A stretch of DNA of 64,000 nt. Source: a virus. Its lineage: Duplodnaviria; Caudoviricetes. The position numbers and the translations under genes are program-made. Positions 19,122 through 46,837 of the stretch are shown here, one piece after another (the stretch's first letter is position 1; every line of letters starts with the position of its first letter). Under the pieces are notes generated by a model that did no database searches, had not been told where the DNA came from, and saw nothing but the letters and a program-made list of their open reading frames with translations. The stretch is from IMG/VR virus record IMGVR_UViG_3300048881_000780. One strand, written 5' to 3'.

Positions 19122-19703
19122 TCATACTTCTATCTTTTTATTTTCATGTATATTTGTATTGATTTTATTTTCGGCCTCTTCTCTTGATATATTTAGATTA
19201 TCCATGAGAACTTTAATTTCTTTATTCTTAATTCGCTCAACCCTTTTAAGTTTGTCACAATCTTTACAAGAGGATCTTCTGTTTTTTAATCCATGGCTAT
19301 CAATAACAAAATCATCAATATGTTTTGGTAAATTACAAACGGAGCATATTTTCTTATCTGTTTGCAAATTACTTAATGCAACTTTTCTAGCGTCACCTAT
19401 AGATAAATTTCTTTCACTTGCTATTGATTTTACTAAAGACTCTAGAGAAGAATTAATTCTCTTTTTCTTATCGCATTCTTTACAGGATGACCTTCTACCT
19501 TTCTTACCATTTTTATCGACGACAAAATCATTTAGATTTAGTATTTGCTGACAAGATGAGCACTTCTTTGCACCTAAGATCTCTTGCTTAGTTATTGAGC
19601 TTGATGATTCGTGATGAAAGATCTTATTGTTATTTATAAAAGACATTAAATCTTCGAACTCTTTATCACTTTTAAACATGAATGAAATAGTCTTATTAAT
19701 CAT
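19122..19703 (-). CDS. Double zinc-finger protein (two CxxC...F..D..G...RSSCKxC units)
   Basis: Internal duplication; related to 11510..11824. Confidence 0.75.
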   Translation of the reverse strand: MINKTISFMFKSDKEFEDLMSFINNNKIFHHESSSSITKQEILGAKKCSSCQQILNLNDFVVDKNGKKGRRSSCKECDKKKRINSSLESLVKSIASERNLSIGDARKVALSNLQTDKKICSVCNLPKHIDDFVIDSHGLKNRRSSCKDCDKLKRVERIKNKEIKVLMDNLNISREEAENKINTNIHENKKIEV

Positions 19704-21083: not shown

Positions 21084-22268
21084 TTAGTATTTAATATCTT
21101 TAGTTATTGAAGTTTTGGAGTCCCTATCCGTGTCAACGTATTTTATTGTCTGATTTGATGATTGTGTATGAAAAGTGCTAGAAAGAGTTGGCATATCACA
21201 AGTTTTACTAAGCTCTGTGATTACTAACGTTCTTAGAGAGTGAGGCCTTTGGTACGTCTTATCTATCTTGTCACAAAATGCGGAGATCGCCTTTCTTAAG
21301 TAACCCGTTGTTATTCTCTTATAGTTTCCGTTCTTTGATCTTCTATGTAGCGTCTGCAAGAAGCTTTCATAGATCCTAGTCTTTCTTTGTTTTAATCCAT
21401 TACAATCCGGACACTGATGAGAATCAAAACTTTCAAACTCACATAGCTCACAAATGAATCCATTAATATAATGTCTTGCTGATAATATCTCTTCTTTACT
21501 TCTGGCCACATATCCCTTATATCTCGCTCGAGAGACTAATCTTTTTTCAAATAGTTCTAACTGATCTAAGTATTGATCGAGTGCTTCTAAGGCGCTGTCT
21601 GAAAGAGTGAAGATTCTTTCTAGGTTAGTTTTCTTTTCTTTGAACTTAAAATAGAAGTCACCTTCTTCAGAATATTTTAAATCATTAAAACTCATTCTAA
21701 CCAAGTCGATAGATCGCATACCAGTATAGGATAGAAAGAGAATTGCAAATCTTCCGAACATTTCTTTATACGTTAATATATCTAAATCTTTAAATTCAAT
21801 AATCTCTGTAATGACATCTTTATCGGCCTTAGCAGTTAAAATCCTACCAACATCTCTAATATCTTTAACTTTTTTTACAACTTTAACTGGATTGGATTTT
21901 ACGATATCTAAATCTTCAGCAATTTGATAAAACGATTTAATTATATTTATCTCAAGATTTCTCGTTGTAGGTGCCCCACTTCTTGTTTCAAAATAAAGAA
22001 GTGCCTGCTCCTTAGTAACCATATCAAATTTAACTTCATGGCATTCAAAAAAATCTAACCATCTAGAAATTGCTCGATCATAATTTCTTCTAGAGTTTTT
22101 ATTTTTAAGTCTATTAAAGATATGAACTAAGACTGTTGCTAACCTTGGTTGATTTTTTAAGAAGGAAAGTGATGACAAATCACTAAGTTCTCTTTGTGTG
22201 CTTATCTCTAATTTTTTAACAACTTGATTCATGGTAAAAAGATCCAGGTAGATAAGTTGCATCCCCAT
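21084..22268 (-). CDS. Tyrosine recombinase with inserted C4 zinc ribbon
   Basis: TGMR, KEKKT, HSLR, H...TIKY catalytic set; CELC...CPDC insert. Confidence 0.85.
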   Translation of the reverse strand: MGMQLIYLDLFTMNQVVKKLEISTQRELSDLSSLSFLKNQPRLATVLVHIFNRLKNKNSRRNYDRAISRWLDFFECHEVKFDMVTKEQALLYFETRSGAPTTRNLEINIIKSFYQIAEDLDIVKSNPVKVVKKVKDIRDVGRILTAKADKDVITEIIEFKDLDILTYKEMFGRFAILFLSYTGMRSIDLVRMSFNDLKYSEEGDFYFKFKEKKTNLERIFTLSDSALEALDQYLDQLELFEKRLVSRARYKGYVARSKEEILSARHYINGFICELCEFESFDSHQCPDCNGLKQRKTRIYESFLQTLHRRSKNGNYKRITTGYLRKAISAFCDKIDKTYQRPHSLRTLVITELSKTCDMPTLSSTFHTQSSNQTIKYVDTDRDSKTSITKDIKY

Positions 22269-22797: not shown

Positions 22798-25700
22798 ATG
22801 TTCACTAAAAGATTATTATCAATCATTTTAACCTCATTCCTTCTTACAGGATGTGTAAAACCCACAAATAACAATAAAGGTCCAAGCGTATTAAACGAAA
22901 TTGAAGAAACTAAATCAGAGCAATATATCTCTGTTATTGTTAATTCTAATTACAAAGTTATAGATTCAATAGCTAACTTGGGTTCCAATATCGGTTGGTC
23001 ATCTAGAGTCCTTGATATTTGTGAGATCAGAGAAAATGCTGGTAATTATGAAGTTAGATTAAAGGACGGACTCAGCTTTACGAAAGATACAATCATTTTC
23101 GCAAACGCAAACGATAAACTTGTTGGTTTTATGTTTGAAGGTGTTGAAGATGTTGGAGGCACTTTAAATGGAGTTATTGTAGATATCGCTCCAGAAATTA
23201 GTCAGATTATCAGTATTCCTATCGTTAGCGAAAGTGCTCCATCTGTTAACTTAAGATCTCCAAAAATAAAAATCATTTTAGATGGAGAAACAGTTCCTCA
23301 AACGTACACAGGCTTATCAATTACTTCAAGAGGTAGAATCAGTGTCCCAAAAGATATAGGTGGAGAAGTAATTATTGAATCAAACCGTAGAGAATACGGG
23401 AGATTTACTTTAACTAGGTTTGGACCAGGTTCTCTAGTTATGCCTGATCTTATTCCGGAATTCAATCCAACGGCCATAACATTATCAACAGATGAAGATG
23501 TAACTGAAGCATTTCAAATTCCTGAGGCATCTTTTCCAGCCGTCGGAGTACAGGAGTATGAAGTTAGAGATAATCCAACTAATGGAACACTAGCTTGTAC
23601 AAATAGAGATTGTTCTTACACTCCAAACCCTGGATTTGTGGGGGTGGATACTTTTTCAGTAAGAGCGTTTTTAGATAGATCACCTAGTGAGCCACTAGTG
23701 TACACAATGAATGTTCTAGACACTCCAGATAATCCGATCCTTGAGGATGCAAATCTTGTTGTTACTGATGAAAATACTCCTGTAGCTTTTAATTTAGCTA
23801 ATGCAACTGATCCAGATGGTGATGTAAATTTAACATACACAATTGTTTCTCCACTTGGAGCGGGAGACGGAACTCTTACATGTTCTGTAATGCCAGCTTG
23901 TAATTATACTCCAGTGAATGGATTTGTTGGCGAAGTAAGTTTCACATTAAAAGTAACTGACTCGACAGGCTTAGATTCTCAAACTAAGATTCAAAGAATT
24001 CAAGTTAACAATGTTAATGATGCTCCTGTTTTAGATGACCCTGTATTAGTTGAAACAAATCAAGCAACACCTGTTACATTTAATCTACCATCAGCAAGTG
24101 ATGCTGATGGTGATGCAATAACATATTTCAAAGAGAGTGATCCTTCTAATGGCGGAATAAGCTGTAATTTATCAGCTAATCCAAAGACTTGTACTTATTC
24201 TCCAAATATTTCATTTGTTGGTGATGACTCTTTTTCTATTTACGTTGAAGATTCAAATTCTGCTAGATCTGCATCTAAAACTATAACAATAAGAGTTCAT
24301 GACGTTAACGAGGCTCCAACAATCGCAGCTCAAAGCGTTGCCTACTCTACGAATGAAGATACTACTCTAACTGGAATGCAATTACCTCTAGGTAGTGACC
24401 CAGACGGAGATGCTGTTAGACATGTAGTTGTCACTAATCCAGCAAACGGATCAATAACTTGTTCAAATTCAGGGCTATGTAATTATACTCCATCTCTAAA
24501 CTTCAATGGTACAGACACTTTGCAAGTAAAGGTAACTGACGAATCACTTGATTCAGAAATTAGAGATATCACAATTACTGTAAACCCAATTAATGATGCT
24601 CCTGAGTTATCTATTGCGTCGGGACCTGTTACAACTCCTGAAAACACTCCAGTCACATTTACAATCCCAATGACCGCTTCTGATGTAGATAACACTCAAG
24701 GTGAATTAACATGGAATGTTTCGGCCCCAGTAAATGGATCGATTGACTGCTCAAGTGCTCCAAGTTGTACTTATACTCCAAATAACTCATTTATAGGAAG
24801 TGAATCTTTAGATATTTATGTTTCTGATTTAGAGCCACTATCTTCAATAACAAGATCTCTAACGATTGATATTACAAATGTAAATGATGCCCCAGTGCTA
24901 GAGGAAATGGCCGGAGCAGTTATAACTAACGAAGATACTTTAGTTAATTTTCAACTACCAAATGCAAGTGATGCAGATGGAGACTCTCTTACATGGTTAG
25001 CTCACACTCAACCAGCTAACGGGACTCTATCTTGTAATGCTTCTGGAAATTGTGATTATACTCCATCTCTAAATTTTAACGGAGCAGACACATTTAAAGC
25101 AAAGGTTAATGATGGTTCACTAGATTCAAATATTGTTGATGTATCCATTACTGTTAATCCAATTAATGATGCCCCTGAATTATCTGTAGCCTCAAATGCA
25201 ATCAATACTCCTGAAGATACGCCGATTACTTTTACAATTCCAATGACTGCTACAGATGTAGATAATGCTCAAGGTGAATTAATATGGAGTGTTTCGGCCC
25301 CAGCGAATGGATCGATTGACTGTTCAAGTGCTCCAAGTTGTACGTACACTCCGAATTTAAACTTTGTGGGATCAGAAAGTTTATCTATTTCAATTTCAGA
25401 TCTTGAACCACTATCTTCTTCAGTTAGAACTCTAGAGATCAACGTTTCAAACTCAAATGATGCTCCAGTTCTGGCCTCTGTTTCAGATTTATCAACTGAT
25501 GAAGATCAGTCGGTTGATTTCACATTATCTGCAACTGACGCCGATGGAGACGCAATTAGTTATCTAGTTGAGTCACAAGGTGGTAACGGTTCAGTTTCTT
25601 GTGTAGATGAAAACTGTACATATACTCCAAACCTTAACTTTAATGGATCTGACTCTTTCCAGATGAAAGCAAATGATTCAACTGTGGATTCAAATATTAT

Positions 25701-28137
25701 CACTATTAATGTTACAGTTAACCCTGTTAACGATGCTCCTACAATGGAAGTAATGGCATCTACAGTTGTAACTGACGAAGACGTTGCAGTAGGATTTCAG
25801 CTACCTAATGGAAGTGATATTGATGGCGATGCTCTAGCTTGGACAATCGTTACTCAACCAACGAACGGTTCAGTTGTTTGTAGTGTTAGAGATTGTACAT
25901 ATACTCCAGACTCAGGATTCAGTGGTTCTGATTCTCTACAAGCAGTAGTAAATGACGGGACAATCAATTCAAATATTATTGACGTTGATTTTACAGTTAA
26001 TAATGTTAACTCAGCTCCAACTCTATCAGCAGTTGCTCCACTCTACACAGATATTAATACGCCTTTAGACTTCTCACTTTCTGCAAATGATATTGATGGG
26101 GATAGCTTAAGCTACATTGTTTCTTTTGCACCATCAAATGGAGTGACAAATTGTATATCAAATAATTGTACTTATACACCTAGTAACGACTTCAATGGAA
26201 GCGATTCTTTTCAAATGAAAGTAAATGATGGTGAAGTTGATTCAAATATCATTACTATAAATGTGCAAGTTGGACCGCCTCCAGCGACAGCTTTTCAGGT
26301 AGAAGAAGAGAAATCTAGAATGTTATTAACTCTTAATAATGATAAGGTCTCTTATATAGATGAATTAAATGTTTACAATGATGTTTTTATCTCTCCTCTT
26401 GGCCTAACTAGTAATTCTAGACTTGATTCTCTTAGAAATTTATCTGGAGGTTTTTTAGCCGATGTAGGTCCAATTAAAACTAGATACGGAATGGGTCATA
26501 TGTTAAATAACTATTTATCTGAGATGTATATAGTACCATTCATTCAACCAGTTAAGATAACCGATAGAGTCGCTTCTAGACAGACTGATTCAGAATCATG
26601 TTTTTTTCTTGGGGACGATAACGATAATGCTTATCTTCAATGTAACGGAAGTGCCAGTGGCTCTTACGCTAGTCTTGATACATGTGGATTTAATTTTAGT
26701 GAAATTATTGCCACTGATAAGTTTAGTAATATGATTGCAAAGAAAGGATCACTTGACTCGTCTAGTGGAAGTGATGTTTACACTTACCATAGGTATACAT
26801 GTGACGGAACTCAACAATGGGCCCCAATACCACTTGAAATTGAAGAGCCTCTAGGGTTTATAGCTCCAGGTCACGTTTACTATGAGAAATCTCCAGGGCT
26901 TTATGGGTTAATTAGTTTAATTGACTATACTGAAAAAACTGAGTTCACTAACTTTGGTGATATTTCTAAGAAATACAACATTAGAAATAGAACTACTGAA
27001 GACGTATTTGGTGCAGATAACGCTGGTGCAATAGGAAACCACCCGTCACTATATGGAGCTCCTCATGCCGTTATGGTTCCAATGGACTCTGGAGGAGAAG
27101 ATTATAAATTCTTTTTTAGAAGTGAAGATGGATCTACATATGCTTCAGGATTTACTTATCTTAATACTCATAGAAATGACGCAATATCTGATCATGTAGC
27201 AGTAAAGGTTTACTCTAATTATGGATTCGCAATTCCATTAAATGCAGCGGGAAAGATGACTCATATTGGAACACTTCACCCGGATTTTTTATCAATTAAG
27301 ACGGATACAATTCACGATATACTTGTTCATCCTCATGACATGATGGTTATCTCAACTAGCGGTAATTTTGTTATGATCCGTACGGGAGTTGGAAGTTCGA
27401 ACTTATTTCACGCATCTAACGTGAGAAAACTTGATGTTGATTTTGATATTACGAAAGCAGTAGACTTTACGATTATCGATAATACCGAAACTGGCGGTGA
27501 AGACGTTATCCTTGTCACAGATAGTGATTTAAATAGAGCTCTATATGCTGATTCTTATGCTAGTGGAAGTATTAACCCTGTTATTCACAAGAGAGCAGAT
27601 TTTACGTTTACAGCTGACGAGGAAGTAATGACAGAGTTCACTCTACCTGCGGCGGGTAGCGACCATTATATAGTATCTCAAGGGACTCAAAATGGGACAC
27701 TCGCCTGTGTATCTGGGGTGTGTCAGTATCATGGTAATCTAGACTTTAGAGGATCTGAATTCTTCTCTATAGTACCTTCTCTTGGTGGAGAAGAGAAATT
27801 GGTAGAGCTTGCAATTTTAGATACTCCTGATGCTCCAAAGTTAGGTACGGTGTCACCTCTTAGTGCTCCAAGTAATGGTGGATACTCTTATCTAGATATT
27901 CCAATCATTTCTAATCAAAGAGCAAGTGATTTAACAGTTGAAATCCTAGTTCAGCCAGCGAACGCAAGTGTACAGTGGTGTTCAGCGAGTCATGAGTATA
28001 ATAAGGATGAGGGCCTATTGAGATGTAGAGTTCTTGTTCCAAATATAGCGCCTTCTGGACCAGATACAATTAAGGTTAGAGTTACTGACTCAAAGGGACT
28101 GTCAGTTGAGATAGATATTAACTTTGATATATACTAA
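22798..28137 (+). CDS. Large surface lipoprotein/adhesin with ~12 disulfide-containing cadherin-like (Big_9/tandem-95) repeats
   Basis: Lipobox LTGC; repeated NDAP...T.ED...D.DGD...C...C.YTP units; N-terminal module related to 5445/7785 proteins. Confidence 0.9.
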   Translation: MFTKRLLSIILTSFLLTGCVKPTNNNKGPSVLNEIEETKSEQYISVIVNSNYKVIDSIANLGSNIGWSSRVLDICEIRENAGNYEVRLKDGLSFTKDTIIFANANDKLVGFMFEGVEDVGGTLNGVIVDIAPEISQIISIPIVSESAPSVNLRSPKIKIILDGETVPQTYTGLSITSRGRISVPKDIGGEVIIESNRREYGRFTLTRFGPGSLVMPDLIPEFNPTAITLSTDEDVTEAFQIPEASFPAVGVQEYEVRDNPTNGTLACTNRDCSYTPNPGFVGVDTFSVRAFLDRSPSEPLVYTMNVLDTPDNPILEDANLVVTDENTPVAFNLANATDPDGDVNLTYTIVSPLGAGDGTLTCSVMPACNYTPVNGFVGEVSFTLKVTDSTGLDSQTKIQRIQVNNVNDAPVLDDPVLVETNQATPVTFNLPSASDADGDAITYFKESDPSNGGISCNLSANPKTCTYSPNISFVGDDSFSIYVEDSNSARSASKTITIRVHDVNEAPTIAAQSVAYSTNEDTTLTGMQLPLGSDPDGDAVRHVVVTNPANGSITCSNSGLCNYTPSLNFNGTDTLQVKVTDESLDSEIRDITITVNPINDAPELSIASGPVTTPENTPVTFTIPMTASDVDNTQGELTWNVSAPVNGSIDCSSAPSCTYTPNNSFIGSESLDIYVSDLEPLSSITRSLTIDITNVNDAPVLEEMAGAVITNEDTLVNFQLPNASDADGDSLTWLAHTQPANGTLSCNASGNCDYTPSLNFNGADTFKAKVNDGSLDSNIVDVSITVNPINDAPELSVASNAINTPEDTPITFTIPMTATDVDNAQGELIWSVSAPANGSIDCSSAPSCTYTPNLNFVGSESLSISISDLEPLSSSVRTLEINVSNSNDAPVLASVSDLSTDEDQSVDFTLSATDADGDAISYLVESQGGNGSVSCVDENCTYTPNLNFNGSDSFQMKANDSTVDSNIITINVTVNPVNDAPTMEVMASTVVTDEDVAVGFQLPNGSDIDGDALAWTIVTQPTNGSVVCSVRDCTYTPDSGFSGSDSLQAVVNDGTINSNIIDVDFTVNNVNSAPTLSAVAPLYTDINTPLDFSLSANDIDGDSLSYIVSFAPSNGVTNCISNNCTYTPSNDFNGSDSFQMKVNDGEVDSNIITINVQVGPPPATAFQVEEEKSRMLLTLNNDKVSYIDELNVYNDVFISPLGLTSNSRLDSLRNLSGGFLADVGPIKTRYGMGHMLNNYLSEMYIVPFIQPVKITDRVASRQTDSESCFFLGDDNDNAYLQCNGSASGSYASLDTCGFNFSEIIATDKFSNMIAKKGSLDSSSGSDVYTYHRYTCDGTQQWAPIPLEIEEPLGFIAPGHVYYEKSPGLYGLISLIDYTEKTEFTNFGDISKKYNIRNRTTEDVFGADNAGAIGNHPSLYGAPHAVMVPMDSGGEDYKFFFRSEDGSTYASGFTYLNTHRNDAISDHVAVKVYSNYGFAIPLNAAGKMTHIGTLHPDFLSIKTDTIHDILVHPHDMMVISTSGNFVMIRTGVGSSNLFHASNVRKLDVDFDITKAVDFTIIDNTETGGEDVILVTDSDLNRALYADSYASGSINPVIHKRADFTFTADEEVMTEFTLPAAGSDHYIVSQGTQNGTLACVSGVCQYHGNLDFRGSEFFSIVPSLGGEEKLVELAILDTPDAPKLGTVSPLSAPSNGGYSYLDIPIISNQRASDLTVEILVQPANASVQWCSASHEYNKDEGLLRCRVLVPNIAPSGPDTIKVRVTDSKGLSVEIDINFDIY

Positions 28138-28154: not shown

Positions 28155-31100
28155 TTAATCCCAGTCTTCTTCATTGTCGTCATCAATATCACCGAACTCA
28201 TCTTCTTCATCTTCAGTAAATTGGTTAAAATCTAATGGAATATTTTCCTCTTTATTATTTAGATATTCTTCATGATCTACATCAAAATCATCGTCAGAAT
28301 TTTTCTTCTTCTTGTATCCCATCATTGTAGCAAGATCATCAGATGAAATCTCTTCGCTATCATTCTCTTCTTCAAATAAGCTATCAAATCCAACAGGTGA
28401 AGAATTCTTATGTTCCGCTTCAGTTATAAAATCATTAATATCTTCGTGTTCGATTATTTCAATATAGTCGATTTTATCCGCTTCATGTCTTAATTGAACA
28501 GTCATTCCACCCATTAAATAAACTACAATCTTTCTAAACTCGAACCCGTCATCAAGATGTTGTCTTCTTAAATAAACCAAATGATCTACAAACTTGGTAT
28601 CTAATTTTGAGGCCCCATCTAGATCTAGACATATAATGCCATCGCACATCTTCGTTTCAGCAGATACCCATCTAATCAAATCAACATCTTTTTGAAATGA
28701 CTTTTTTCCACTTAGATCCTTAAGGTTTCCTTTACTTCTTTCATTTTTAGCAAACTCAGTATTAAAACCTCTTAAATCTTCTAATCTCTTAACCCATGCA
28801 GGAAAATACTTTCCTCTTTTCATTGGCCTTATTTTTTCTGGAATTTCATAGATATCATCTACAAATGTTCTATTAAAATTGTAAATATCTTCTTTTATAT
28901 TTGAATCACTTAGAATTATAATCCCTTTACTGTTTGCGTACTCAATAGCATCTTTTTGAAATTTTCCAGTTGTTACAAAAATAAATCTTTCAAATTCAAT
29001 GCCACACATATCCCTATATAGATCAATGGTCTTTAGAACCTTTTTTAAGTCATCTTTGTTGCTGGCGCTAGTAGGTCTATTTTTACACTGAATTCCAACT
29101 GCTTTCTTGTTTTTTCTATCTGTCCAGTACAGTAGATCTAGACCGGAATCTCGACCACCTTTATGAACTTTAGAGCTTAATATTCCTCTAGATTTTAACT
29201 CATCGGTTGACTCGACATCCTTCCCTTGTTTTCTTAAGAATGAAGCATACCACTTCTCAAAAAGAGGGCCTTTATCTTTAGTCTTAGTTGTTTTTAACTT
29301 TTCATATTCTTTTAAATTGATTTGATCATCAACTTTTTCATCACTTTGTTGAATAGCGATAATGTCTGAAGACTTTTGTTGTGGCTCTATTAATCCCCAA
29401 AAAATTGGTTCCTTTATTTGGTCACCTTGATTTTTAATGGCCTTAAGTAGTGGCTTATTGTAATCAAGAGGTGTTAAAACTTCACACGAGTTTGCAGTCG
29501 TATCTATTAGATCTAGGGCCGACTTTACTTGGGAGTTTTTAAGAGTTTTAAACATATAGATAATTTTATGATCACTAACAAGCTTTCCTTCTGAGTCTTT
29601 ATCTATTTCAATATAACCTTCCTTAATGACTCTATCGTTAAACCTAATGTCAACTTCATCTCCATTTAAGATTGCCAGAGCATACTTTTTGCCAGTTTTT
29701 TCATTTTTAAAGAATAGACTAAATGAGTAGTACTGAGGGTTATAAGTCTTTAATACTTTATAATCCTCATGCTTAATGAATGCACTCAGAACCATATTAA
29801 AAAATTTCTTGATATCCATTTTTTGAAAATCGATACCATCAAAACCTTTCTCAATAACAACCATGGCCCTATCGTAATCAGGAGTCTTAGCCATATCAAC
29901 TTTGCTCTCAATTCGATCTAGAGTCAGATTCATATTCTCACCTAAGTAAGGTTGATAAGCTGGAATAAGAGGCGATCTAGTTACTTTACACGTTAAATGG
30001 GGGCATTCTATGAGAGCTTCACCTGTCTTTAATTTCCCAGGTTCAAAACCAGAGAAGTCTACCTGAAGAACTTCCTTCATATATTTAATATCCCTACCAG
30101 TAATTCTCATAATAATACGTGTAGATAAGTTTGTAGCTAGTCTAGATGGAAATGTGGCCGCTCTAGCTTCCTGAGATGCTAAAATAGCACTTATTCCAAC
30201 TTTACGATATTGAGACAGGAATTCATGAAGTAATTGTGCTGGAGAACCGGGAGATTTAGAATTTGAATCAAACTGAAGAAATTCTGATAATCCTGCAAAT
30301 TCGTCAATAGCAACGATTATATGAGGCAACTTTTTTCCGGTAATTCTCTTGTAGTCTTGAATATTGGCACATGTAGTTCCGGTTTCAATTGAAACTTCTC
30401 TAAAAAGTGCAATCCTCTCTCTTTGTCTCTTTTGAACATATTTTAAAACATTTTGTACTTCCACAAGAGGATGAGAGGTGTCAGATCCTATGACTTTCCT
30501 AAATGATGTATGTCCAAATTTAGAAAATTTTTGGTGAATCGGATCGAATTCTTCTGAATCTGAACCGTTCCCGCAAATAATTTCAACTTCGGAACCATAT
30601 ACCTGTGCATGAAAAAGTAGCATACTTTTAAGATATTCAGACTTTCCCGAACCAGTAGTTCCTACTATCATTAAGTGAGGTGATAAATCTGAACTCACAA
30701 AAATTTCACCAGATGCGCTTCCGATATCAATAGAGCCATCGCGAACACCTCCAAAGTACCAGTGAAACTGATTTGTCTCTTTATAAAGTTTTTGAAGTTC
30801 TTTAACCGGCCCGTTAATCCAGTTGTCAAATTCTTCAGCAACAGTTGTTTCAACACACTTTTTTACATCTTTTTTAGTATGCAAAATATATGTATCTGGA
30901 TTATCTTGAGATTGACTCGCAAATGTATACTCAAATCTCTTTTCTTTTGTAGAGTATTCAATACTGAATTGTTCCATTGCTTTTTGTAGATCATCAATTT
31001 TAATACCTAAATTTCTACAGTCTAAATGAAGATCTCCATTGCTTTTTAATTCAATTGTTGGATATTTTCTATTGTATATTTCACCAAGAACTTCGTCATA

Positions 31101-31805
31101 AAAGAGTTTAAAGTCATCACATATTTTATGAAATCTTCTCTCTCTTTGGTCTTTTAGAGTTAAAAACTCTACTTCTAATTGTCCGTTCTTATTTGGTTTA
31201 ACTACACCATATTGAGATTTTCCAATCCTTAAATCATAAAGTCCTTGAATTAGAGTAGCATTATAGTTTTTTTCATTTTTTCTAAACTGTTGCATGGCCT
31301 CTTTTCTAATATTGAAAATAATTACCTTTTTACCTTGAACTTCAAATTGCGGATAATAGTCTCTTGTTTTTTTAATTGGTTTTCCAGTTTGATCAACCTT
31401 TGGTCTCTTAAAGAACCACCAACCTTCGAGAACATATCTGTCGGTCGTTTCTGAATATACGAGGGCCACAGAATTCATTAATTCAAAATATTGATCTAGA
31501 AAAGTCTTTTCTTTACTTGGAGCAAGCTTTATTAAAATTATACCGAGTAAAATAACTGCAAAAATTACTAAAAAAATAGGTCTCTCTTGAATTAATTTTA
31601 CAACTGGGAAATCCATGAAAATAACGACGTACTTCTTTAGAAGTTTAAAAAATGGTTTCATTATTGATGGAGATAGAAAGTGCTCTAACAAATCGCTGTC
31701 TACATATTTTACAAGAATCTTTCTGAAGCTCCTGTTAAATATATAGTTATAACAGAGACTAATATATCCAATAAATAGTGCTAAATAAAACTTAAAATAA
31801 TTCAT
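28155..31805 (-). CDS. Membrane-anchored FtsK/SpoIIIE-family ATPase fused to tandem Mrr-like PD-(D/E)xK domains and an acidic tail
   Basis: N-terminal TM; GTTGSGKS, AIDEF, RKVGI..ILASQ; FE...DSGLDL...IQCK...VTTGKF. Confidence 0.85.
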   Translation of the reverse strand: MNYFKFYLALFIGYISLCYNYIFNRSFRKILVKYVDSDLLEHFLSPSIMKPFFKLLKKYVVIFMDFPVVKLIQERPIFLVIFAVILLGIILIKLAPSKEKTFLDQYFELMNSVALVYSETTDRYVLEGWWFFKRPKVDQTGKPIKKTRDYYPQFEVQGKKVIIFNIRKEAMQQFRKNEKNYNATLIQGLYDLRIGKSQYGVVKPNKNGQLEVEFLTLKDQRERRFHKICDDFKLFYDEVLGEIYNRKYPTIELKSNGDLHLDCRNLGIKIDDLQKAMEQFSIEYSTKEKRFEYTFASQSQDNPDTYILHTKKDVKKCVETTVAEEFDNWINGPVKELQKLYKETNQFHWYFGGVRDGSIDIGSASGEIFVSSDLSPHLMIVGTTGSGKSEYLKSMLLFHAQVYGSEVEIICGNGSDSEEFDPIHQKFSKFGHTSFRKVIGSDTSHPLVEVQNVLKYVQKRQRERIALFREVSIETGTTCANIQDYKRITGKKLPHIIVAIDEFAGLSEFLQFDSNSKSPGSPAQLLHEFLSQYRKVGISAILASQEARAATFPSRLATNLSTRIIMRITGRDIKYMKEVLQVDFSGFEPGKLKTGEALIECPHLTCKVTRSPLIPAYQPYLGENMNLTLDRIESKVDMAKTPDYDRAMVVIEKGFDGIDFQKMDIKKFFNMVLSAFIKHEDYKVLKTYNPQYYSFSLFFKNEKTGKKYALAILNGDEVDIRFNDRVIKEGYIEIDKDSEGKLVSDHKIIYMFKTLKNSQVKSALDLIDTTANSCEVLTPLDYNKPLLKAIKNQGDQIKEPIFWGLIEPQQKSSDIIAIQQSDEKVDDQINLKEYEKLKTTKTKDKGPLFEKWYASFLRKQGKDVESTDELKSRGILSSKVHKGGRDSGLDLLYWTDRKNKKAVGIQCKNRPTSASNKDDLKKVLKTIDLYRDMCGIEFERFIFVTTGKFQKDAIEYANSKGIIILSDSNIKEDIYNFNRTFVDDIYEIPEKIRPMKRGKYFPAWVKRLEDLRGFNTEFAKNERSKGNLKDLSGKKSFQKDVDLIRWVSAETKMCDGIICLDLDGASKLDTKFVDHLVYLRRQHLDDGFEFRKIVVYLMGGMTVQLRHEADKIDYIEIIEHEDINDFITEAEHKNSSPVGFDSLFEEENDSEEISSDDLATMMGYKKKKNSDDDFDVDHEEYLNNKEENIPLDFNQFTEDEEDEFGDIDDDNEEDWD

Positions 31806-31838
31806 TAATTCCTCAGTGCTTATAATTCTCTTATCGTA

Positions 31839-32114
31839 TTAGGACAGTTTATGTAACTGAGGTAATTCAACCTTCGTTAAGTCATAGACCTTGATGCCCT
31901 TTTCCGCTAAGGAGATTTTAAATAAATTAATCTTTCTGGAAGTAATTGGATCTAGGTTAGAAAATAGATTTGCACATTCTATTGATCTGGTTAATCCATA
32001 GGAGTACAGAAGAGAAAAAACAACTTGAGCCAACTCTTGCGTATATGAGATTTTTAGAATTAAAACTCTTTTTCCATAGTTATTAATGTTAATAATCGCA
32101 TATTTATTTTTCAT
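31839..32114 (-). CDS. Hypothetical protein, 91 aa
   Basis: ORF with AGGA RBS. Confidence 0.6.
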   Translation of the reverse strand: MKNKYAIININNYGKRVLILKISYTQELAQVVFSLLYSYGLTRSIECANLFSNLDPITSRKINLFKISLAEKGIKVYDLTKVELPQLHKLS

Positions 32115-32140: not shown

Positions 32141-32155
32141 TAACACGGTGTGTCA
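32141..32155. promoter_or_regulatory. TAACAC-N3-GTGTYA operator-like palindrome
   Basis: TAACAC-ggt-GTGTCA abutting minus-strand TATAAT. Confidence 0.65.
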
Positions 32156-35856: not shown

Positions 35857-37470
35857 ATGAGATTTATAGCAATACTAACATTACTACTTGTCGTATCATG
35901 TCAACCTAGCAAAAAGAAGAAGGTTGTTAAATCACCATTGGCCCCTCCAGTTAACAATGAGAACCCAAACACTCAGGGTGGGATATCAAGTCAAATTTAT
36001 GCACTAGAGGACCTGGTGAGTTTTAACAATAGCGCAACTCCAATCGAGGATTCTTACAACTCTTTTAATCTACCTCTTTCATCCTTCTCTGGAATAAATA
36101 TCGTAGGTAGAGATGTCGATAATTTAGCATTTTCAACTTACAATGAGTCAAATATCTCTAAGGCACATGCTTTAAAATATTTAATTACAAATGAAGTTGA
36201 TACAACTATTGAACACTTTCAAAATAACGAACTTACTTTAATCACTGAAACAAACGGTAGAGCTTATTACATCATTAAAGAAATTGACAATGAGATATTT
36301 ATTCATTCGGGTAAAAATAATAACAGCTCAAAGGTTTTATTGTCTGATAGTCATGTATTAGTTTACAACACTGTAGATTACACGCATGTTAACTACTATA
36401 AAGTTCCAAACACTAAAAGTGATTCTTTAAATATTTCTCTACTTACTCTTCCCTATACTTTTTCTAGATCTGGGGATTCTGTAACAGGTAACGTTCAAAT
36501 CGTTACAGATCAACACTCGGGTGGAGTGGCGATAAATTCTTCTAATGATTATTCTTTTAATTACTTTGATAAAGATACATCATCGTATATCCCACTTGAT
36601 TTTACTGGTGCCATGAAAACTGAAGTTCATAATCACCTAGTGACCAACTACGATATAATTTCGACTTATGCAGAAGGAACTACATTTATTTTAACACTAT
36701 CTCATCGCACTGATGGAGATATTATTGAATACGCCCTATATGGATACAAGAGTGGTGTTACTTGGACTTCTAAACAACTTAGACTTACAACTGAGGGTGA
36801 AGACGCTAGACCGTACGATATTATTAAATCAAACTATGGATTAGTTGAATATTTTTATGACAGCAATGAAGTAGGGAAATATCTACTAGATGATAAAATT
36901 TCTCCACAGTTTCAGTCATATATTACGACCTTTGGGAACAATTTAAACATAACAGATATTATCTTAGTTAAGAATAATCAAAATCTTTGTCTTGGTAAAT
37001 TAACAGGTGAGACTAGATGCTTTGGTCACAACAACCTATCTACTTCTCATATTAATGAAATATCACCCTTAAAGATGTTTGTGGGTGGAAGTAATTCTAT
37101 CTTTGCTCTATACGAGAATGGAAAAATTTATGCTATTGAAAAATACTCTCCAAACAGTGATGTTTTCTTAAGTGGATTTTCCACCAGTGAAGCCGAAAAA
37201 CAAATATCAGGCACAGTTAGAGAGATTGGCCTTGTAGAAGATTTAAGATCTAAGAGACTCACTCTATTTGCCATTCAAAATAACGGAGAAATCGTTATTA
37301 TCGGTAATAGAATTGGTCAAACTTTTGGATCAACTAGTTATGATAATCACAGATATCAACTAGAATACTTCTTTGTTGGATATAATTACATAGGTTTACA
37401 GGCCTCCAATGGTGATCCAAGTTTTATCACTCCTAAGGGGCAGAACTTTATCAATTCAAACGCCTTTTAA
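35857..37470 (+). CDS. Lipoprotein, beta-rich (possible propeller)
   Basis: Lipobox VVSC; GAGG RBS. Confidence 0.75.
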   Translation: MRFIAILTLLLVVSCQPSKKKKVVKSPLAPPVNNENPNTQGGISSQIYALEDLVSFNNSATPIEDSYNSFNLPLSSFSGINIVGRDVDNLAFSTYNESNISKAHALKYLITNEVDTTIEHFQNNELTLITETNGRAYYIIKEIDNEIFIHSGKNNNSSKVLLSDSHVLVYNTVDYTHVNYYKVPNTKSDSLNISLLTLPYTFSRSGDSVTGNVQIVTDQHSGGVAINSSNDYSFNYFDKDTSSYIPLDFTGAMKTEVHNHLVTNYDIISTYAEGTTFILTLSHRTDGDIIEYALYGYKSGVTWTSKQLRLTTEGEDARPYDIIKSNYGLVEYFYDSNEVGKYLLDDKISPQFQSYITTFGNNLNITDIILVKNNQNLCLGKLTGETRCFGHNNLSTSHINEISPLKMFVGGSNSIFALYENGKIYAIEKYSPNSDVFLSGFSTSEAEKQISGTVREIGLVEDLRSKRLTLFAIQNNGEIVIIGNRIGQTFGSTSYDNHRYQLEYFFVGYNYIGLQASNGDPSFITPKGQNFINSNAF

Positions 37471-38427: not shown

Positions 38428-38793
38428 CTAGGTTGGTAGAATTCTAACTTTCCCATCTGATAAGTGAGCAACTTTACACGATGTCCAGGTTTCTTTTTTC
38501 TTATTTCTTGTTGTCCAGTCTGCGACGAGATATGGATCATAGAAAATCTCTACACTCCATTTATGATTACTATTTTCAAACAAAGAAACTAACTCTCCCT
38601 CAATAAATGCGTGTACATTTTTTTGCCTCTCTCTTAGTACTCTCTCCCTTCCCTTTTTACCTACAACTAATCTGCAATTGATAAGAGTTATAGCATTAGT
38701 GTAAGCGATTACCTTACCAGTCTTTTTATTTCTTACTGAAAAACAGCCTTTATGTAAGTTTTTATATACTTGGACAATCATTTCTTCACCCAC
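38428..38793 (-). CDS. Conserved phage-type hypothetical protein (VYxNLH...KNVHAF)
   Basis: VYKNLHKGCFSV...GRERVLRERQKNVHAFIEG. Confidence 0.75.
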   Translation of the reverse strand: MGEEMIVQVYKNLHKGCFSVRNKKTGKVIAYTNAITLINCRLVVGKKGRERVLRERQKNVHAFIEGELVSLFENSNHKWSVEIFYDPYLVADWTTRNKKKETWTSCKVAHLSDGKVRILPT

Positions 38794-39533
38794 AAAACCT
38801 CTAATCTCTTTGAGTTTTGAGTATCGATTGTCTTATAAAGCTTTTTCCACCCTAGTTGATCGTAAATCTCATTATCATATCCAGATAATAGGCAATGGCC
38901 TTTAATCTTGCTTAAAACATTTACTAGTTCTTGATGATCAGTATTTGTTAATTCAAACTTGTATGATTTTTTTGATACCCTTAGATTATGTAGATATGGA
39001 GGATCAATATAGAAAGTCGTATGTGACTTATCATATCTTTGTATACAGTCCTTCCAATCAAGTCTCTCTATGATAACTCCTCTTAATCTCTCACTAAAGA
39101 ATTCTAAATATTCTAAATAATTCTTAAATCCTGTTGCGGGAGAGGAGTTTTGAGAAATCGAATTCCTAAATCCGGTGTTATTATTTATAGAATCACCAAT
39201 ACCCATAAATGATTTTATGATTGTTTTGGCCGCTCTCTCTACGGGACAAAATGAATATAATCTGGCCTCGTCGTATACCTCTCTTGAGTATGGGGTAAAT
39301 TGGAGATATCTCTTAAGTTCTTGATATCGATCTCTAACTACTTTAAAAACATTAACTATTTCACCGTCTATATCATTATAGACTTCATTTTTAACTCTAT
39401 CTTTAAATAATAGAATTGTTCCACCTCCCCCAAAAGGTTCTACATATGTCTTAGATGGAGGTAGATTAGCTAAAATCCATTTCCTTGATGTGAACTTACC
39501 GCCAAAATAATTTATAAGAGGTCTTTGCTTCAT
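38778..39533 (-). CDS. DNA adenine methyltransferase, D12/Dam class
   Basis: YFGGK, YVEPFGGGG, NDID, IDPPY. Confidence 0.93.
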   Translation of the reverse strand: MKQRPLINYFGGKFTSRKWILANLPPSKTYVEPFGGGGTILLFKDRVKNEVYNDIDGEIVNVFKVVRDRYQELKRYLQFTPYSREVYDEARLYSFCPVERAAKTIIKSFMGIGDSINNNTGFRNSISQNSSPATGFKNYLEYLEFFSERLRGVIIERLDWKDCIQRYDKSHTTFYIDPPYLHNLRVSKKSYKFELTNTDHQELVNVLSKIKGHCLLSGYDNEIYDQLGWKKLYKTIDTQNSKRLEVLWVKK

Positions 39534-43366: not shown

Positions 43367-46300
43367 TTAAAAAACACCCTCGGTTAGTTCGACAAACTCT
43401 AGATACAGAGAGCTTTCACCATCTGAAAGAAACGGTGTTCCCTGATATCCGGGCTCCTCTTTTGGGGTAACCATTAAAAAATGCTCATTATCATCATTTA
43501 TAAATTCTCTTGGATCAATACTTGAAACATCACCATCTTTAAATTCCAAAAGATATTCCATAGGTCTATCTTTCATAAGAAATAGCGACGACTCATTAGA
43601 CTCACTCATTAATATCCATTGATCTTCAATGAAATTATATGCATAAAGCTGAACCCCATATACATTACTAAGCCCTGCAACTGTTGAGGCCTTTGCGATA
43701 GCATTAACTTTAATATTTAATTTTCGTGCGAATTCTTTTGCGTGATCACGAAGTGACATCTTAACCATTAATGCCGACTTGTGACCTGGTAGAGAGTCGA
43801 AAACGCTAACTTTTCCAGGTGTTCTATCTCGATCCCCTCTACTATAAAATAAATATCTATTAGTCACTTCGTTGTAGACGATCTCATCTCCAACAAATTG
43901 ATCACCAAATATATCAAAGGAGCTCACTTCAAAGCTAATCCCAGAAAGTAGATCTAATTGAAATACTTTATCATCTGAAAAGTAATGAGTTTTTCTAGTG
44001 GCACTATCAAATATAACTTTCCCGTTATAAAGATTGTCGCTAATTACTTTAGTTTTTTCAGCTATAGTATCTAAATTATCCTCTTCCCCATCATCAATTA
44101 CAAATGCATCAATAATCGCTGACACTACTGATGTAGAGACACTAGGAAGGCCACAACCTTTACACACTCTAAACCACTGAACTTCTCTATCTTCTTCAGT
44201 TGGTTCAAACGACCAAATCTCATCTAAGTATTCCCACTCTCCAGTTTGAGAGTTTACGGCAAATCCTCCAATAATATAGACCTTTTCATAGATTGAACTA
44301 TAGTGAACTATTGGTGAAAACCTAGCTTGAGGCATTCCAAAATTTGGATCGGCGACAACTCCTTTTTCAATAAAAACGATAGGAACTGATTCTGGACCAA
44401 TTGGTGCTCTAGCTAAAGTTACCTTTGAACTACTTTGCATTTGAGATCCAACAGACTTAAGTCCTCCATAAATAAATATTCCCAGTGGAGTTTCTTCACT
44501 AATACCTGGAAACAATGCCCCCTCAGGAAATGGGACTTGAGAATTTGTAAATTTTTCAAATGAAAGAGAGTCTAGGTTATTCTTCAGTAAAGATGGATAT
44601 TTATAAGTTCCAAATTTATTATTAATTCTAAGTGAAGAGTCATCAAAGTCATGAGATAGACCACCATAGATATAGTAAATATCACTATCTTTTAGATATA
44701 GAGTATTAGCATACATTATATTATTGGTTCCAAATGCTCTCGAGTCAGTGGTAGCGAAATCCAACCATCCCGCGAGATCATTTCCATTAGATCTAAATAC
44801 ATTTAACTCTCCACCATAAAATAAGCTATAACTTCTATCTGAACCACCCCTATCTATCAGTCCTCGGGCCGAGTTATGAACTTCCATCGTACATGGCCCC
44901 CATACGAAAAAATCAACCACTGAGGCAATGCAATTTGATGACATAAATGGAAAGTTATAATTAACTTCAAAGATTTTTTTTGAATAATTCGTTTGAGATA
45001 TAAATTGTCCACTGTTTTTCTCAATTGCAGTTGTAGGCCCCTGGTAAGGAAACCAATTTGCAGAAAAAGGAGGAACTTCTAATGAAGGAGAAAAGATAGA
45101 GTTAACATTCGTCTTATAAAGGTTTAATCGATTATTAGAATCTTTAAATCTATAAGTCTCTCTTCCTACTGATTGAATCTGCTTAGATACTGATTTGGAG
45201 TTGAGTGTACCTGTAATAGTGATAGGACCTTTAATTCCTATTCCCCTAACAACAAATGTGGCCAAAGAGTCTGACCCTGTAGTTACAGTAAAGACAGATC
45301 TCCCCTCTGATATACCACCATGTGCTACTGCATTGTACAGAGAGACATCGATTGGTGTTCCGGCCCCAACAGGATTTCCTTGCGGATCCTTTGCTGGGCC
45401 AATTACTACACTTGTTGTTGAAGGATATTCTAAATCTCCAAACTCATAGTAAATTGAGGGTTCAGATGTGTTTATCTCAAAGTCTCCGGATGGCGCTGAA
45501 GGAACTAATGTTATGCTATTTTGTCCATTTGCTCCATATCCAAGAAGATGACCCTCCCCACTATATAGTGGATTTGATTTCATTCTAAATCTAACTTCAC
45601 CAGTAGATAATGAAGCTGTATACTTAATAAATGCCTCTCCATTAACCGTATAGGCCTTTTCTACTGAAGATCTATCGTTAAAGGTACCACTTCCTTCAAA
45701 TATTTCAAATTCGACCTCAGTTCCGTCATCTACAACATCCCCGTTTACATTTAACAGAGGTCTTGTTCTAAGTACTACTGAATTCGCTCCATTGGCCCTT
45801 AGTATATTATTGTAAGGAAATAGAGATATCTCTCCCACTGCTGGGCCAGAAGTATAAGGAATAGTTATTGCTCCAAGTGCTAAACTAGAAGAAACAGTAA
45901 AACTTGCTTCACCTGTTGTTGATCCACTTTTAAACTTAATTAATGCCACTCCATTTTGTGTTAAAACTGTTTGATCAACCACTTCCAGTATTGAGTTAGT
46001 TGTAGAAATTTGCGCTAAGGTTCCATCACTTACTGCATTTCCAAATTCATCTGTAACAATGGCCTCACATTCTTGCAGTAGTGGGTCATCAACATTTAAT
46101 TTAATAGGACAGTTTCTAAAAGAAATTATTCCCGATGGGTCACCCGGATAAACATCGGCATTGTATGTAATACTACTTCTTACACTATCATTAACCTTCA
46201 TTTCTAATTTATCTGAAACTAGCCCTGAATAAATTTCTCTGAATTTAATTTCAATCTGACATTGCTCACCTGGTCTTAATCCAAGTTCTGGGCAATTTGT

Positions 46301-46837
46301 ATAACTAGTTGTAAAACGAGTTGTATCTACTGGAAATGGAGTCTGAATAAGTTCTGTTCCAGTGTTTTCAATTAAAAAAGTCTTAGTTATTCTTTCTCCA
46401 GCTCTAGCTTCACCAATGGCCCAAGAGTTCGGAAAAATAGAAAACCTTCCTCCACCAATTGCCTCTCCGGTAACAATTAGAGATTCTCCATAGAAATTTA
46501 AAGTAATCGACTTATTACCTTCCGTTGTTGGTGTAAAATGAAATACATATGTACAAATAGTCTGAGGAGGTATGGAGCTAAATGAACACCCATTTGTTGC
46601 AGATTTAAAAACTAACTCATTACTACTCATCGATATTTGAGGACTAAGTGAGTTACTTGATGAATTTCCAACCTTTACACTAATCTCAGATGATAGACCA
46701 ATCTTTACTTTTCCGGCCTTTAGAACGCTGGAAATAACTCCTTCAACCTGTGGTACAGATGTATCAGCCTCTTTACTTTTCTTATTCTGACAAGATACTA
46801 AAGCAAATAAAAGTACTAGAAATAATAGATGTTTCAT
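43367..46837 (-). CDS. Large lipoprotein with Ig-like (ASH and invasin Big_1-type) domains and a Kelch-like C-terminal region
   Basis: Lipobox LVSC; D..GN.V.DGT repeats; YIYGG / FIYGG / YIIGG. Confidence 0.8.
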   Translation of the reverse strand: MKHLLFLVLLFALVSCQNKKSKEADTSVPQVEGVISSVLKAGKVKIGLSSEISVKVGNSSSNSLSPQISMSSNELVFKSATNGCSFSSIPPQTICTYVFHFTPTTEGNKSITLNFYGESLIVTGEAIGGGRFSIFPNSWAIGEARAGERITKTFLIENTGTELIQTPFPVDTTRFTTSYTNCPELGLRPGEQCQIEIKFREIYSGLVSDKLEMKVNDSVRSSITYNADVYPGDPSGIISFRNCPIKLNVDDPLLQECEAIVTDEFGNAVSDGTLAQISTTNSILEVVDQTVLTQNGVALIKFKSGSTTGEASFTVSSSLALGAITIPYTSGPAVGEISLFPYNNILRANGANSVVLRTRPLLNVNGDVVDDGTEVEFEIFEGSGTFNDRSSVEKAYTVNGEAFIKYTASLSTGEVRFRMKSNPLYSGEGHLLGYGANGQNSITLVPSAPSGDFEINTSEPSIYYEFGDLEYPSTTSVVIGPAKDPQGNPVGAGTPIDVSLYNAVAHGGISEGRSVFTVTTGSDSLATFVVRGIGIKGPITITGTLNSKSVSKQIQSVGRETYRFKDSNNRLNLYKTNVNSIFSPSLEVPPFSANWFPYQGPTTAIEKNSGQFISQTNYSKKIFEVNYNFPFMSSNCIASVVDFFVWGPCTMEVHNSARGLIDRGGSDRSYSLFYGGELNVFRSNGNDLAGWLDFATTDSRAFGTNNIMYANTLYLKDSDIYYIYGGLSHDFDDSSLRINNKFGTYKYPSLLKNNLDSLSFEKFTNSQVPFPEGALFPGISEETPLGIFIYGGLKSVGSQMQSSSKVTLARAPIGPESVPIVFIEKGVVADPNFGMPQARFSPIVHYSSIYEKVYIIGGFAVNSQTGEWEYLDEIWSFEPTEEDREVQWFRVCKGCGLPSVSTSVVSAIIDAFVIDDGEEDNLDTIAEKTKVISDNLYNGKVIFDSATRKTHYFSDDKVFQLDLLSGISFEVSSFDIFGDQFVGDEIVYNEVTNRYLFYSRGDRDRTPGKVSVFDSLPGHKSALMVKMSLRDHAKEFARKLNIKVNAIAKASTVAGLSNVYGVQLYAYNFIEDQWILMSESNESSLFLMKDRPMEYLLEFKDGDVSSIDPREFINDDNEHFLMVTPKEEPGYQGTPFLSDGESSLYLEFVELTEGVF

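Follow-up and report, generated by a model that had tools for sequence, protein, structure and literature searches.

A 64,000-nucleotide stretch of the IMG/VR virus record IMGVR_UViG_3300048881_000780 (Duplodnaviria; Caudoviricetes), referred to below in its full length as the window, originates from a hydrothermal-vent metagenome, has a G+C content of 32% and encodes a protein of 1216 aa that we term FtsK-Mrr. The sequence gives good support to an architecture in which one chain joins a membrane-anchored FtsK-class motor to an Mrr nuclease with an intact catalytic set and to one or more dead copies of Mrr. A family of giant uncultivated DNA elements carries FtsK-Mrr as a conserved part of its backbone. 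The product may process the DNA of the element itself, in unlinking, segregation or export, a role to which we assign a probability of about 0.4. The evidence comes from the motifs and predicted folds of the protein, from its relatives, and from the genes and control signals that surround it.

An FtsK-class motor on an N-terminal membrane anchor

The open reading frame (ORF) of FtsK-Mrr (28155–31805, on the minus strand, as are all parts of the protein described below) was judged to be real, and a GAGG Shine-Dalgarno sequence lies 7 nt 5′ of its ATG. A reading made from the letters of the DNA without any database search (the sequence-only reading) had proposed a transmembrane (TM) anchor, which was borne out by a strongly hydrophobic helix at aa 75–95 (31521–31583; Kyte-Doolittle 19-mer mean 3.1) followed by the positive patch KLAPSKEK, and by a possible, weakly hydrophobic first helix at aa 5–23 (31737–31793; hydropathy). 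Hydropathy likewise indicated one or two N-terminal TM segments in most relatives, with a clear TM segment at residues ~3–30 in P0003, P0004, P0005 and P0018–P0023. The start codon is not certain because the ESM Atlas entry for the protein begins at residue 49 (window ~31661), a later start chosen by another gene caller; such a start would drop the weak first hydrophobic segment and retain the strong TM helix.

The anchor is followed by a β-rich cytoplasmic domain (aa 96–215; 31161–31520) that is specific to the family, lies outside the part aligned to FtsK and TcpA, and was modelled with a predicted local distance difference test score (pLDDT) of ~88, with no known fold assigned to it. Sequence and model together place the next region (aa 216–640; 29886–31160) in the FtsK/SpoIIIE/TcpA class of α+β motors. 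The Walker A motif GTTGSGKS (aa 382–389; 30639–30662) and the Walker B motif IIVAIDEF (aa 496–503; 30297–30320) are both complete, and Gly382, Ser386, Gly387, Lys388, Asp501, Glu502 and Gln545 are invariant in 17 relatives, in agreement with the intact FtsK ATPase motifs claimed earlier. The Pfam PF01580 (FtsK/SpoIIIE) score of the protein was 28.2 bits, above the cutoff of 24. An AlphaFold2 model of residues 96–640, built from the 17-sequence family alignment, was confident (pLDDT 88) and contains the FtsK/SpoIIIE α and β motor fold. Foldseek ranked TcpA first for this model, with lower scores for EssC (~24.7), HerA-type defence and repair ATPases (~19) and TrwB (~16), and the sole solved structure found by sequence was TcpA of pCW3 (E 4e-5). 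The structure matches thus place the motor nearer to FtsK and TcpA than to HerA proteins. FtsK_gamma, the winged-helix domain that reads KOPS and activates XerD, gave no Pfam match in FtsK-Mrr (P0001) or in 16 relatives; the C-terminus, where FtsK has its gamma domain, is taken up by a domain that we call domain 1 and by the Mrr modules. The modelled motor is presumably a hexameric ring that translocates double-stranded DNA (dsDNA).

The matches to TcpA bear on a role as a TcpA/TraB-type conjugative coupling protein that would serve a type IV secretion system (T4SS) of the element, with its own nuclease in place of a relaxase. FtsK-Mrr has the layout of such proteins, an N-terminal TM hairpin leading into an FtsK-like nucleotide-binding motor, and a tblastn search of phages and plasmids with the protein, which recovered the ATPase domain only, gave TcpA, pELF and Streptomyces FtsK-like genes as the nearest plasmid matches. 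Family scans, however, detected no T4SS family in the window or within 10–30 kb in the relatives, so that nothing links FtsK-Mrr physically to T4SS genes there, and we regard a coupling protein of this kind as unlikely.

Active and degenerate nuclease modules in the C-terminal half

Domain 2 (aa 838–986; 28848–29294) is a predicted Mrr_cat endonuclease of the PD-(D/E)xK type with the putative catalytic residues Glu850, Asp890, Gln906 and Lys908. Pfam Mrr_cat (PF04471) matched at residues 849–967 with 41.8 bits, and the motifs LFEKW, SGLDLL and GIQCK are present where the sequence-only reading had noticed the pattern FE...D.GLD...IQCK. The E...D...(Q/E)xK set is carried on an α-β-β-β-α-β core, and all four residues are invariant in 17/17 aligned relatives, which indicates that the nuclease chemistry is under selection.

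Domain 3 (aa 990–1134; 28404–28838) follows directly and was recognised as a degenerate Mrr duplicate by three methods: pairwise BLASTP against domain 2 (E 8e-6), hhalign against the family Mrr profile (probability 98%, E 2e-13, 137 columns) and hmmsearch (i-E 8.8e-17). Glu850 is replaced by Pro (FEKW to FPAW), Gln906 by Ile and Lys908 by Leu (IQCK to IICL), and the Asp alone is retained. Judged by these comparisons, domain 3 is a true homologue and a dead duplicate of domain 2, as had been supposed. Its structure prediction gave no confident model (pLDDT ~30) because the alignment held no relatives of the domain; when domains 2 and 3 were predicted as a complex, the score was 0.08 against a mark of 0.32, which is not used as evidence either way. 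C-terminal extensions in the closest relatives (P0003:1130-1336, P0004:1030-1225 and P0006:1060-1256) also match the Mrr profile (hhalign probability 79%, E 1.7e-5) and also carry no catalytic motif. Domain 3 and these extensions do not align with each other, and by sequence the extension is a second, independently diverged pseudo-nuclease module. The tandem of an active and a degenerate nuclease therefore recurs in the clade.

Domain 1 (aa 655–805; 29391–29843), which lies between the motor and domain 2, is a conserved, non-catalytic α/β domain. It is kept family-wide, with Phe676 invariant and Glu680 nearly invariant, and it does not have the D and QxK positions of the nuclease set. The model (pLDDT ~80) orders its elements as α-βββ-α-β-α-β, which is the order of the restriction-endonuclease core. 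Comparison by hhalign revealed no profile similarity between domain 1 and domain 2, domain 3 or the C-terminal extension A9, and Pfam scans of 17 members together with a profile search of Protein Data Bank (PDB) sequences returned only scattered chance matches. A protein-language-model search with residues 655–805 retrieved only Mrr_cat/PDDEXK clusters at scores of 0.87–0.89, which we treat as a lead only, and a shape search of the ESM Atlas with the C-terminal model recovered Mrr_cat clusters alone and told nothing further about domain 1. The model suggests that domain 1 probably has a restriction-endonuclease-like fold. The sequence-only reading had described a pump-and-cut machine at the membrane in one chain, with three Mrr-fold domains of which only the middle one was catalytic; anchor, motor, active Mrr domain and dead copy agree with that description, and the conserved α/β character and the topology of domain 1 fit it in part, but there is no sequence link between domain 1 and Mrr, and only domain 3 is demonstrably derived from an Mrr domain.

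The protein ends in an acidic tail (aa 1135–1216; 28158–28403) that closes with EEDWD and is as acidic as first described, with 33 Asp/Glu against 5 Lys/Arg in 82 residues (40% D/E). P0012, P0016 and P0019 finish in comparable acidic tails that have an aromatic residue close to the terminus, but most members do not. A role of the tail as an auto-inhibitory DNA mimic, as put forward by the sequence-only reading, is a candidate one.

The fold matches of domain 2, which at the top include LlaBIII (Type ISP), MspJI, Shedu, Avs4, Card1/Can2 and Hna, point towards defence or entry exclusion, in which a ring at the membrane would catch phage or conjugative DNA by its free end as it enters at the envelope and reel it in while the Mrr domain shreds it. 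The element's own DNA would then be spared through modification, for which a Dam-class methyltransferase is at hand in the window, or through sequence reading by the dead domains. The variable C-terminus, with its independent degenerate duplicates and with acidic tails in some members only, fits such a role, which we consider possible.

Distribution of the FtsK-Mrr family

Searched exhaustively with HMMER, 1.84 billion cluster representatives yielded 466 proteins at E < 1e-3, mostly generic FtsK-like proteins. The 19 cluster representatives at E < 1e-30, most of them 960–1350 aa long with 24–30% identity, align from the N-terminal region through the Mrr domain. Motor and Mrr domain are combined in 27 of the best 40 matches, as judged by a search with the family Mrr profile; the motor-Mrr architecture is represented by ~27 cluster representatives at 22–30% identity, and Pfam FtsK_SpoIIIE and Mrr_cat were confirmed in most of the members checked. 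Every member of the family stems from a metagenome assembly, with hydrothermal vents among the source environments. The contigs of the relatives range from 33% to 56% G+C, and the family therefore spans diverse hosts.

No family member was found among 50,697 phage records, 72,556 plasmids, the GTDB species genomes or PADLOC, sets in which the ATPase or the Mrr domain was matched only singly. When 24 kb of the window was compared with phages and plasmids by megablast, nothing matched, and an exact-match search of viral and metagenome contigs with the window end was equally negative. Scanning species genomes and metagenome contigs for patterns retrieved only generic FtsK relatives, with 22–30% identity on the motor. 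A word-indexed search returned nothing with the single sequence and only generic FtsK/EssC proteins with the family alignment, without recovering the family itself. Literature searches found no account of an FtsK-Mrr fusion.

Predicted control signals and gene neighbourhood

FtsK-Mrr lies downstream of the genes for the large and medium subunits of a T4-type topoisomerase II on the same strand, as the sequence-only reading had noted, and is separated from them by a predicted promoter/operator and an ORF of 91 aa (31839–32114, minus strand) that has no family match and is not conserved in the loci of the relatives. The control region runs from a palindrome overlapping an extended −10 element through the 91-aa ORF and an octamer box, TACGATAA, to the FtsK-Mrr start. 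The box (31831–31838, minus strand) stands 26 nt 5′ of the start codon. It occurs in 18 copies in the window (423–48246) against 2.6 expected, a number that none of 100 shuffles reached, and its sites (for example 31831, 35543, 47627 and 48239) are mostly in the sense orientation and shortly 5′ of start codons, among them those of FtsK-Mrr, the topoisomerase II large subunit and dUTPase. From its placement, TACGATAA is likely to be an element-specific promoter or leader signal. The palindrome before FtsK-Mrr (32141–32155, annotated on the plus strand; TGACAC-acc-GTGTTA in the minus-strand reading) is a predicted operator that overlaps the extended −10 TGTTATAAT. Copies of the form TAACAC-N3-GTGTTA with 0–2 mismatches lie in intergenic positions at 32141, 35531, 39568, 54169 and 54286, where they stand before FtsK-Mrr, before the topoisomerase II operon (35531), before the DnaE and DnaB operons, and between the methyltransferase and SNF2 genes. 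The count of the palindrome is by itself only weakly significant (6 against 2.6 expected; 7/100 shuffles reach 6).

The rest of the neighbourhood comprises genes for DnaE, a DnaB-like protein, a primase-like protein, dUTPase, SNF2 and a D12 (Dam-class) methyltransferase (38778–39533), the last 7 kb from FtsK-Mrr. An Xer-like tyrosine recombinase (21084–22268, minus strand; Phage_integrase with a weak SAM-like N-domain) is encoded 6–9 kb from FtsK-Mrr, and a protein with a His-Me finger endonuclease domain (19122–19703, minus strand) is found together with it and with XRE-type regulators.

The relatives show a similar company. FtsK-Mrr stands among DnaB, primase, SSB, a UvsW-like helicase and a DUF3799 exonuclease in L001, L100 and L101, near DnaE in L014 and near RuvC in L015; ParA and an Xer-type recombinase are close by in L003 and L016, and a ParA-ParB pair in L098. 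In L016, L098 and L099 the gene next upstream of FtsK-Mrr encodes an Ig-like lipoprotein of ~1100 aa, and L001 encodes one close by; the homologue in the window is a protein of 1156 aa (43367–46837, minus strand) with the lipobox LVSC and Ig-like domains of the Cep192/ASH/HYDIN type. Pairwise identities among these lipoproteins (25–26%) resemble those among the FtsK-Mrr proteins (24–29%), and this parallel divergence suggests that the lipoprotein is co-inherited with the backbone; it may be a conserved partner of FtsK-Mrr or no more than its neighbour on the backbone.

A second FtsK-like ATPase of ~580–627 aa without a nuclease is encoded in relatives (L101:3664-5403, L003:6715-8586 and L015:3485-5368) and could serve these elements in transfer or secretion. 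That of L101 is part of an operon of ~10 unknown genes, and the window holds no copy. In L001, two short proteins (L001:3626-4462, 278 aa; L001:4552-5439, 295 aa) match FtsK-Mrr in its ATPase core alone (E 1e-10 to 1e-13) and are, as far as these matches indicate, stand-alone motor-domain paralogues.

Some further genes were noted in passing. The window encodes a protein of 1779 aa with nine Big_9/cadherin-like repeats (22798–28137, plus strand) that is convergent with FtsK-Mrr across a 17-bp gap, another Big_9 protein at 61556–63928, and a predicted lipoprotein of 537 aa (35857–37470, plus strand; lipobox VVSC) that matched no family; in the window as in the relatives (e.g. L016:4769-6475), several lipoproteins are encoded around the DNA-metabolism genes. 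A Cys-rich protein of ~520–550 aa with a charged coiled-coil C-terminus (A7) is encoded a few kb from FtsK-Mrr in the loci of six relatives (L014:9242-10906, L016:13364-15010, L098:13534-15144, L099:3888-5498, L097:3-1070 and L101:10001-11554); it matched nothing in Pfam or the PDB, and the window lacks a homologue.

The replisome and topoisomerase II of the window are T4-like, which together with the motor class brings a viral role into view, namely that of a packaging ATPase-nuclease of a giant membrane-containing virus, in which an FtsK/A32-class motor would sit in an internal membrane and cut concatemers in the manner of a terminase. DNA of tectivirus-like viruses and of nucleocytoplasmic large DNA viruses is packaged by FtsK/HerA-class ATPases (cited in PMC7824862), and FtsK-Mrr gave a weak PHROG match to the large terminase family phrog_2666 (E 7e-8). 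The motor, however, has the FtsK α domain, no packaging ATPase appeared among its top 50 matches, and the ParAB and Xer genes are plasmid-like. Neither a capsid nor a portal nor any further virion family turned up in family scans of the window and of the relatives' loci, and a packaging role appears highly improbable.

Two possible roles: handling of own DNA and restriction of incoming DNA

Both of the roles offered by the sequence-only reading, destruction of incoming DNA and processing of the element's own DNA, still lead, and the context favours the second. Own-DNA handling is favoured because FtsK-Mrr is a syntenic backbone gene within replication and partition modules and carries the element's regulatory boxes, which it has in common with replication genes. 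It is further supported by the company of topoisomerase II, Xer and ParAB genes, which are known FtsK partners, and by the closeness of the motor to FtsK and TcpA rather than to HerA. In E. coli, FtsK works with XerCD and Topo IV in chromosome unlinking.

FtsK-Mrr would be seated in the inner membrane, and because no long linker follows the TM helix, its ring would rest directly on the membrane. ATP hydrolysis would reel dsDNA through the ring, the tethered Mrr nuclease would cut the DNA in hand, and the non-catalytic domains may bind DNA or partner the active domain. The most likely substrate would be the replicated DNA of the element. FtsK-Mrr could then act in unlinking or segregation, together with ParAB, the Xer-like recombinase and the type II topoisomerase encoded next to it, or it could make DNA ends and export DNA, as an engine comparable to a terminase or to a coupling protein plus a nickase. 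It is doubtful that FtsK-Mrr is a self-contained, relaxase-free and terminase-like cut-and-pump engine, which would make its own end with the Mrr domain under the guidance of dead reader domains and, in transfer or segregation, drive the >300 kb of the element's dsDNA across the membrane or along it.

Several points weigh against own-DNA handling. Mrr nucleases are known from restriction, and both the fusions of Mrr_cat with translocases (Type ISP, ZorD) and the FtsK/HerA-nuclease pairs are overwhelmingly defence systems, so that the architecture itself speaks mostly for defence. In PADLOC-DB v2, the ATPase of FtsK-Mrr gave domain-level matches to mad8 (E 3.5e-12) and SspH (E 1.4e-7), the Mrr domain matched PDC-S02 and ZorD, and HerA was matched as well. 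The C-terminus, variable and prone to duplication, and the acidic tails have the look of conflict-driven evolution. It would be dangerous for a segregation motor to carry a nuclease that is always active, and we know of no precedent for it. As regards export, none of the relatives has a T4SS gene within 10 kb of FtsK-Mrr, and the second, shorter FtsK-like ATPase of the relatives could be the real transfer ATPase. Finally, the apparent core status of the gene is biased because the relatives were found through FtsK-Mrr itself.

Defence, in favour of which the D12 methyltransferase 7 kb away also counts, is in turn opposed by other observations. FtsK-Mrr had no full-length match to any PADLOC-DB v2 model, and no partner genes were seen. 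No methyltransferase, specificity partner or known defence partner adjoins FtsK-Mrr in any relative, and methyltransferase families were not detected in the relatives' loci at all. The gene resides in replication and partition modules whose synteny is kept across relatives of 25% identity, rather than in variable islands, and its motor is nearer to FtsK and TcpA than to the defence HerA proteins. Processing of the element's own DNA remains our preferred reading. The fusion suggests either a new route by which very large replicons process and move their own DNA or a new restriction machine built around a ring translocase at the envelope, and its tandem of active and dead nucleases may be an example of pseudo-enzymes being taken into service as partners or as readers of DNA.

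Comparison with known systems

Known FtsK-class motors work as pumps without a nuclease, in segregation, in sporulation and in Gram-positive and actinomycete conjugation. FtsK-Mrr shares ~17% identity with the motors of FtsK/SpoIIIE proteins (E. coli and P. aeruginosa FtsK; PDB 2ius and 6t8o) and differs from these proteins in having neither the gamma winged-helix domain nor the long linker after the TM segments, in its additional β-rich N-domain, and in the nuclease-fold modules that replace the C-terminus. TcpA of Clostridium perfringens pCW3 (PDB 6o1w) is similar in that its TM segments lead straight into an FtsK-like motor and in that it is encoded on a mobile element; TcpA, however, has no nuclease domains and is part of the tcp transfer locus, whereas FtsK-Mrr has no transfer genes nearby.

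Type ISP enzymes (LlaBIII, PDB 4xqk) and Zorya ZorD (SNF2 plus Mrr) combine a translocase with an Mrr domain through an SF2 helicase, whereas the ATPase of FtsK-Mrr is of the FtsK ring class and is anchored in the membrane. Neither a methyltransferase nor a target-recognition domain was detected in FtsK-Mrr, so that the one-chain set of Type ISP enzymes is incomplete in it. In the HerA/FtsK-nuclease pairs (HerA-NurA, HerA-DUF4297, Sir2-HerA, DndH/SspH and mad8), the nuclease or effector either forms a protein of its own or has a different fold, and the ATPase is cytoplasmic and has no FtsK α domain, unlike that of FtsK-Mrr. The large terminase of tailed phages belongs to an unrelated ATPase clade, has an unrelated RNase H-like nuclease and has no membrane anchor; by analogy only, it resembles FtsK-Mrr in uniting a DNA pump and an end-making endonuclease in one polypeptide.

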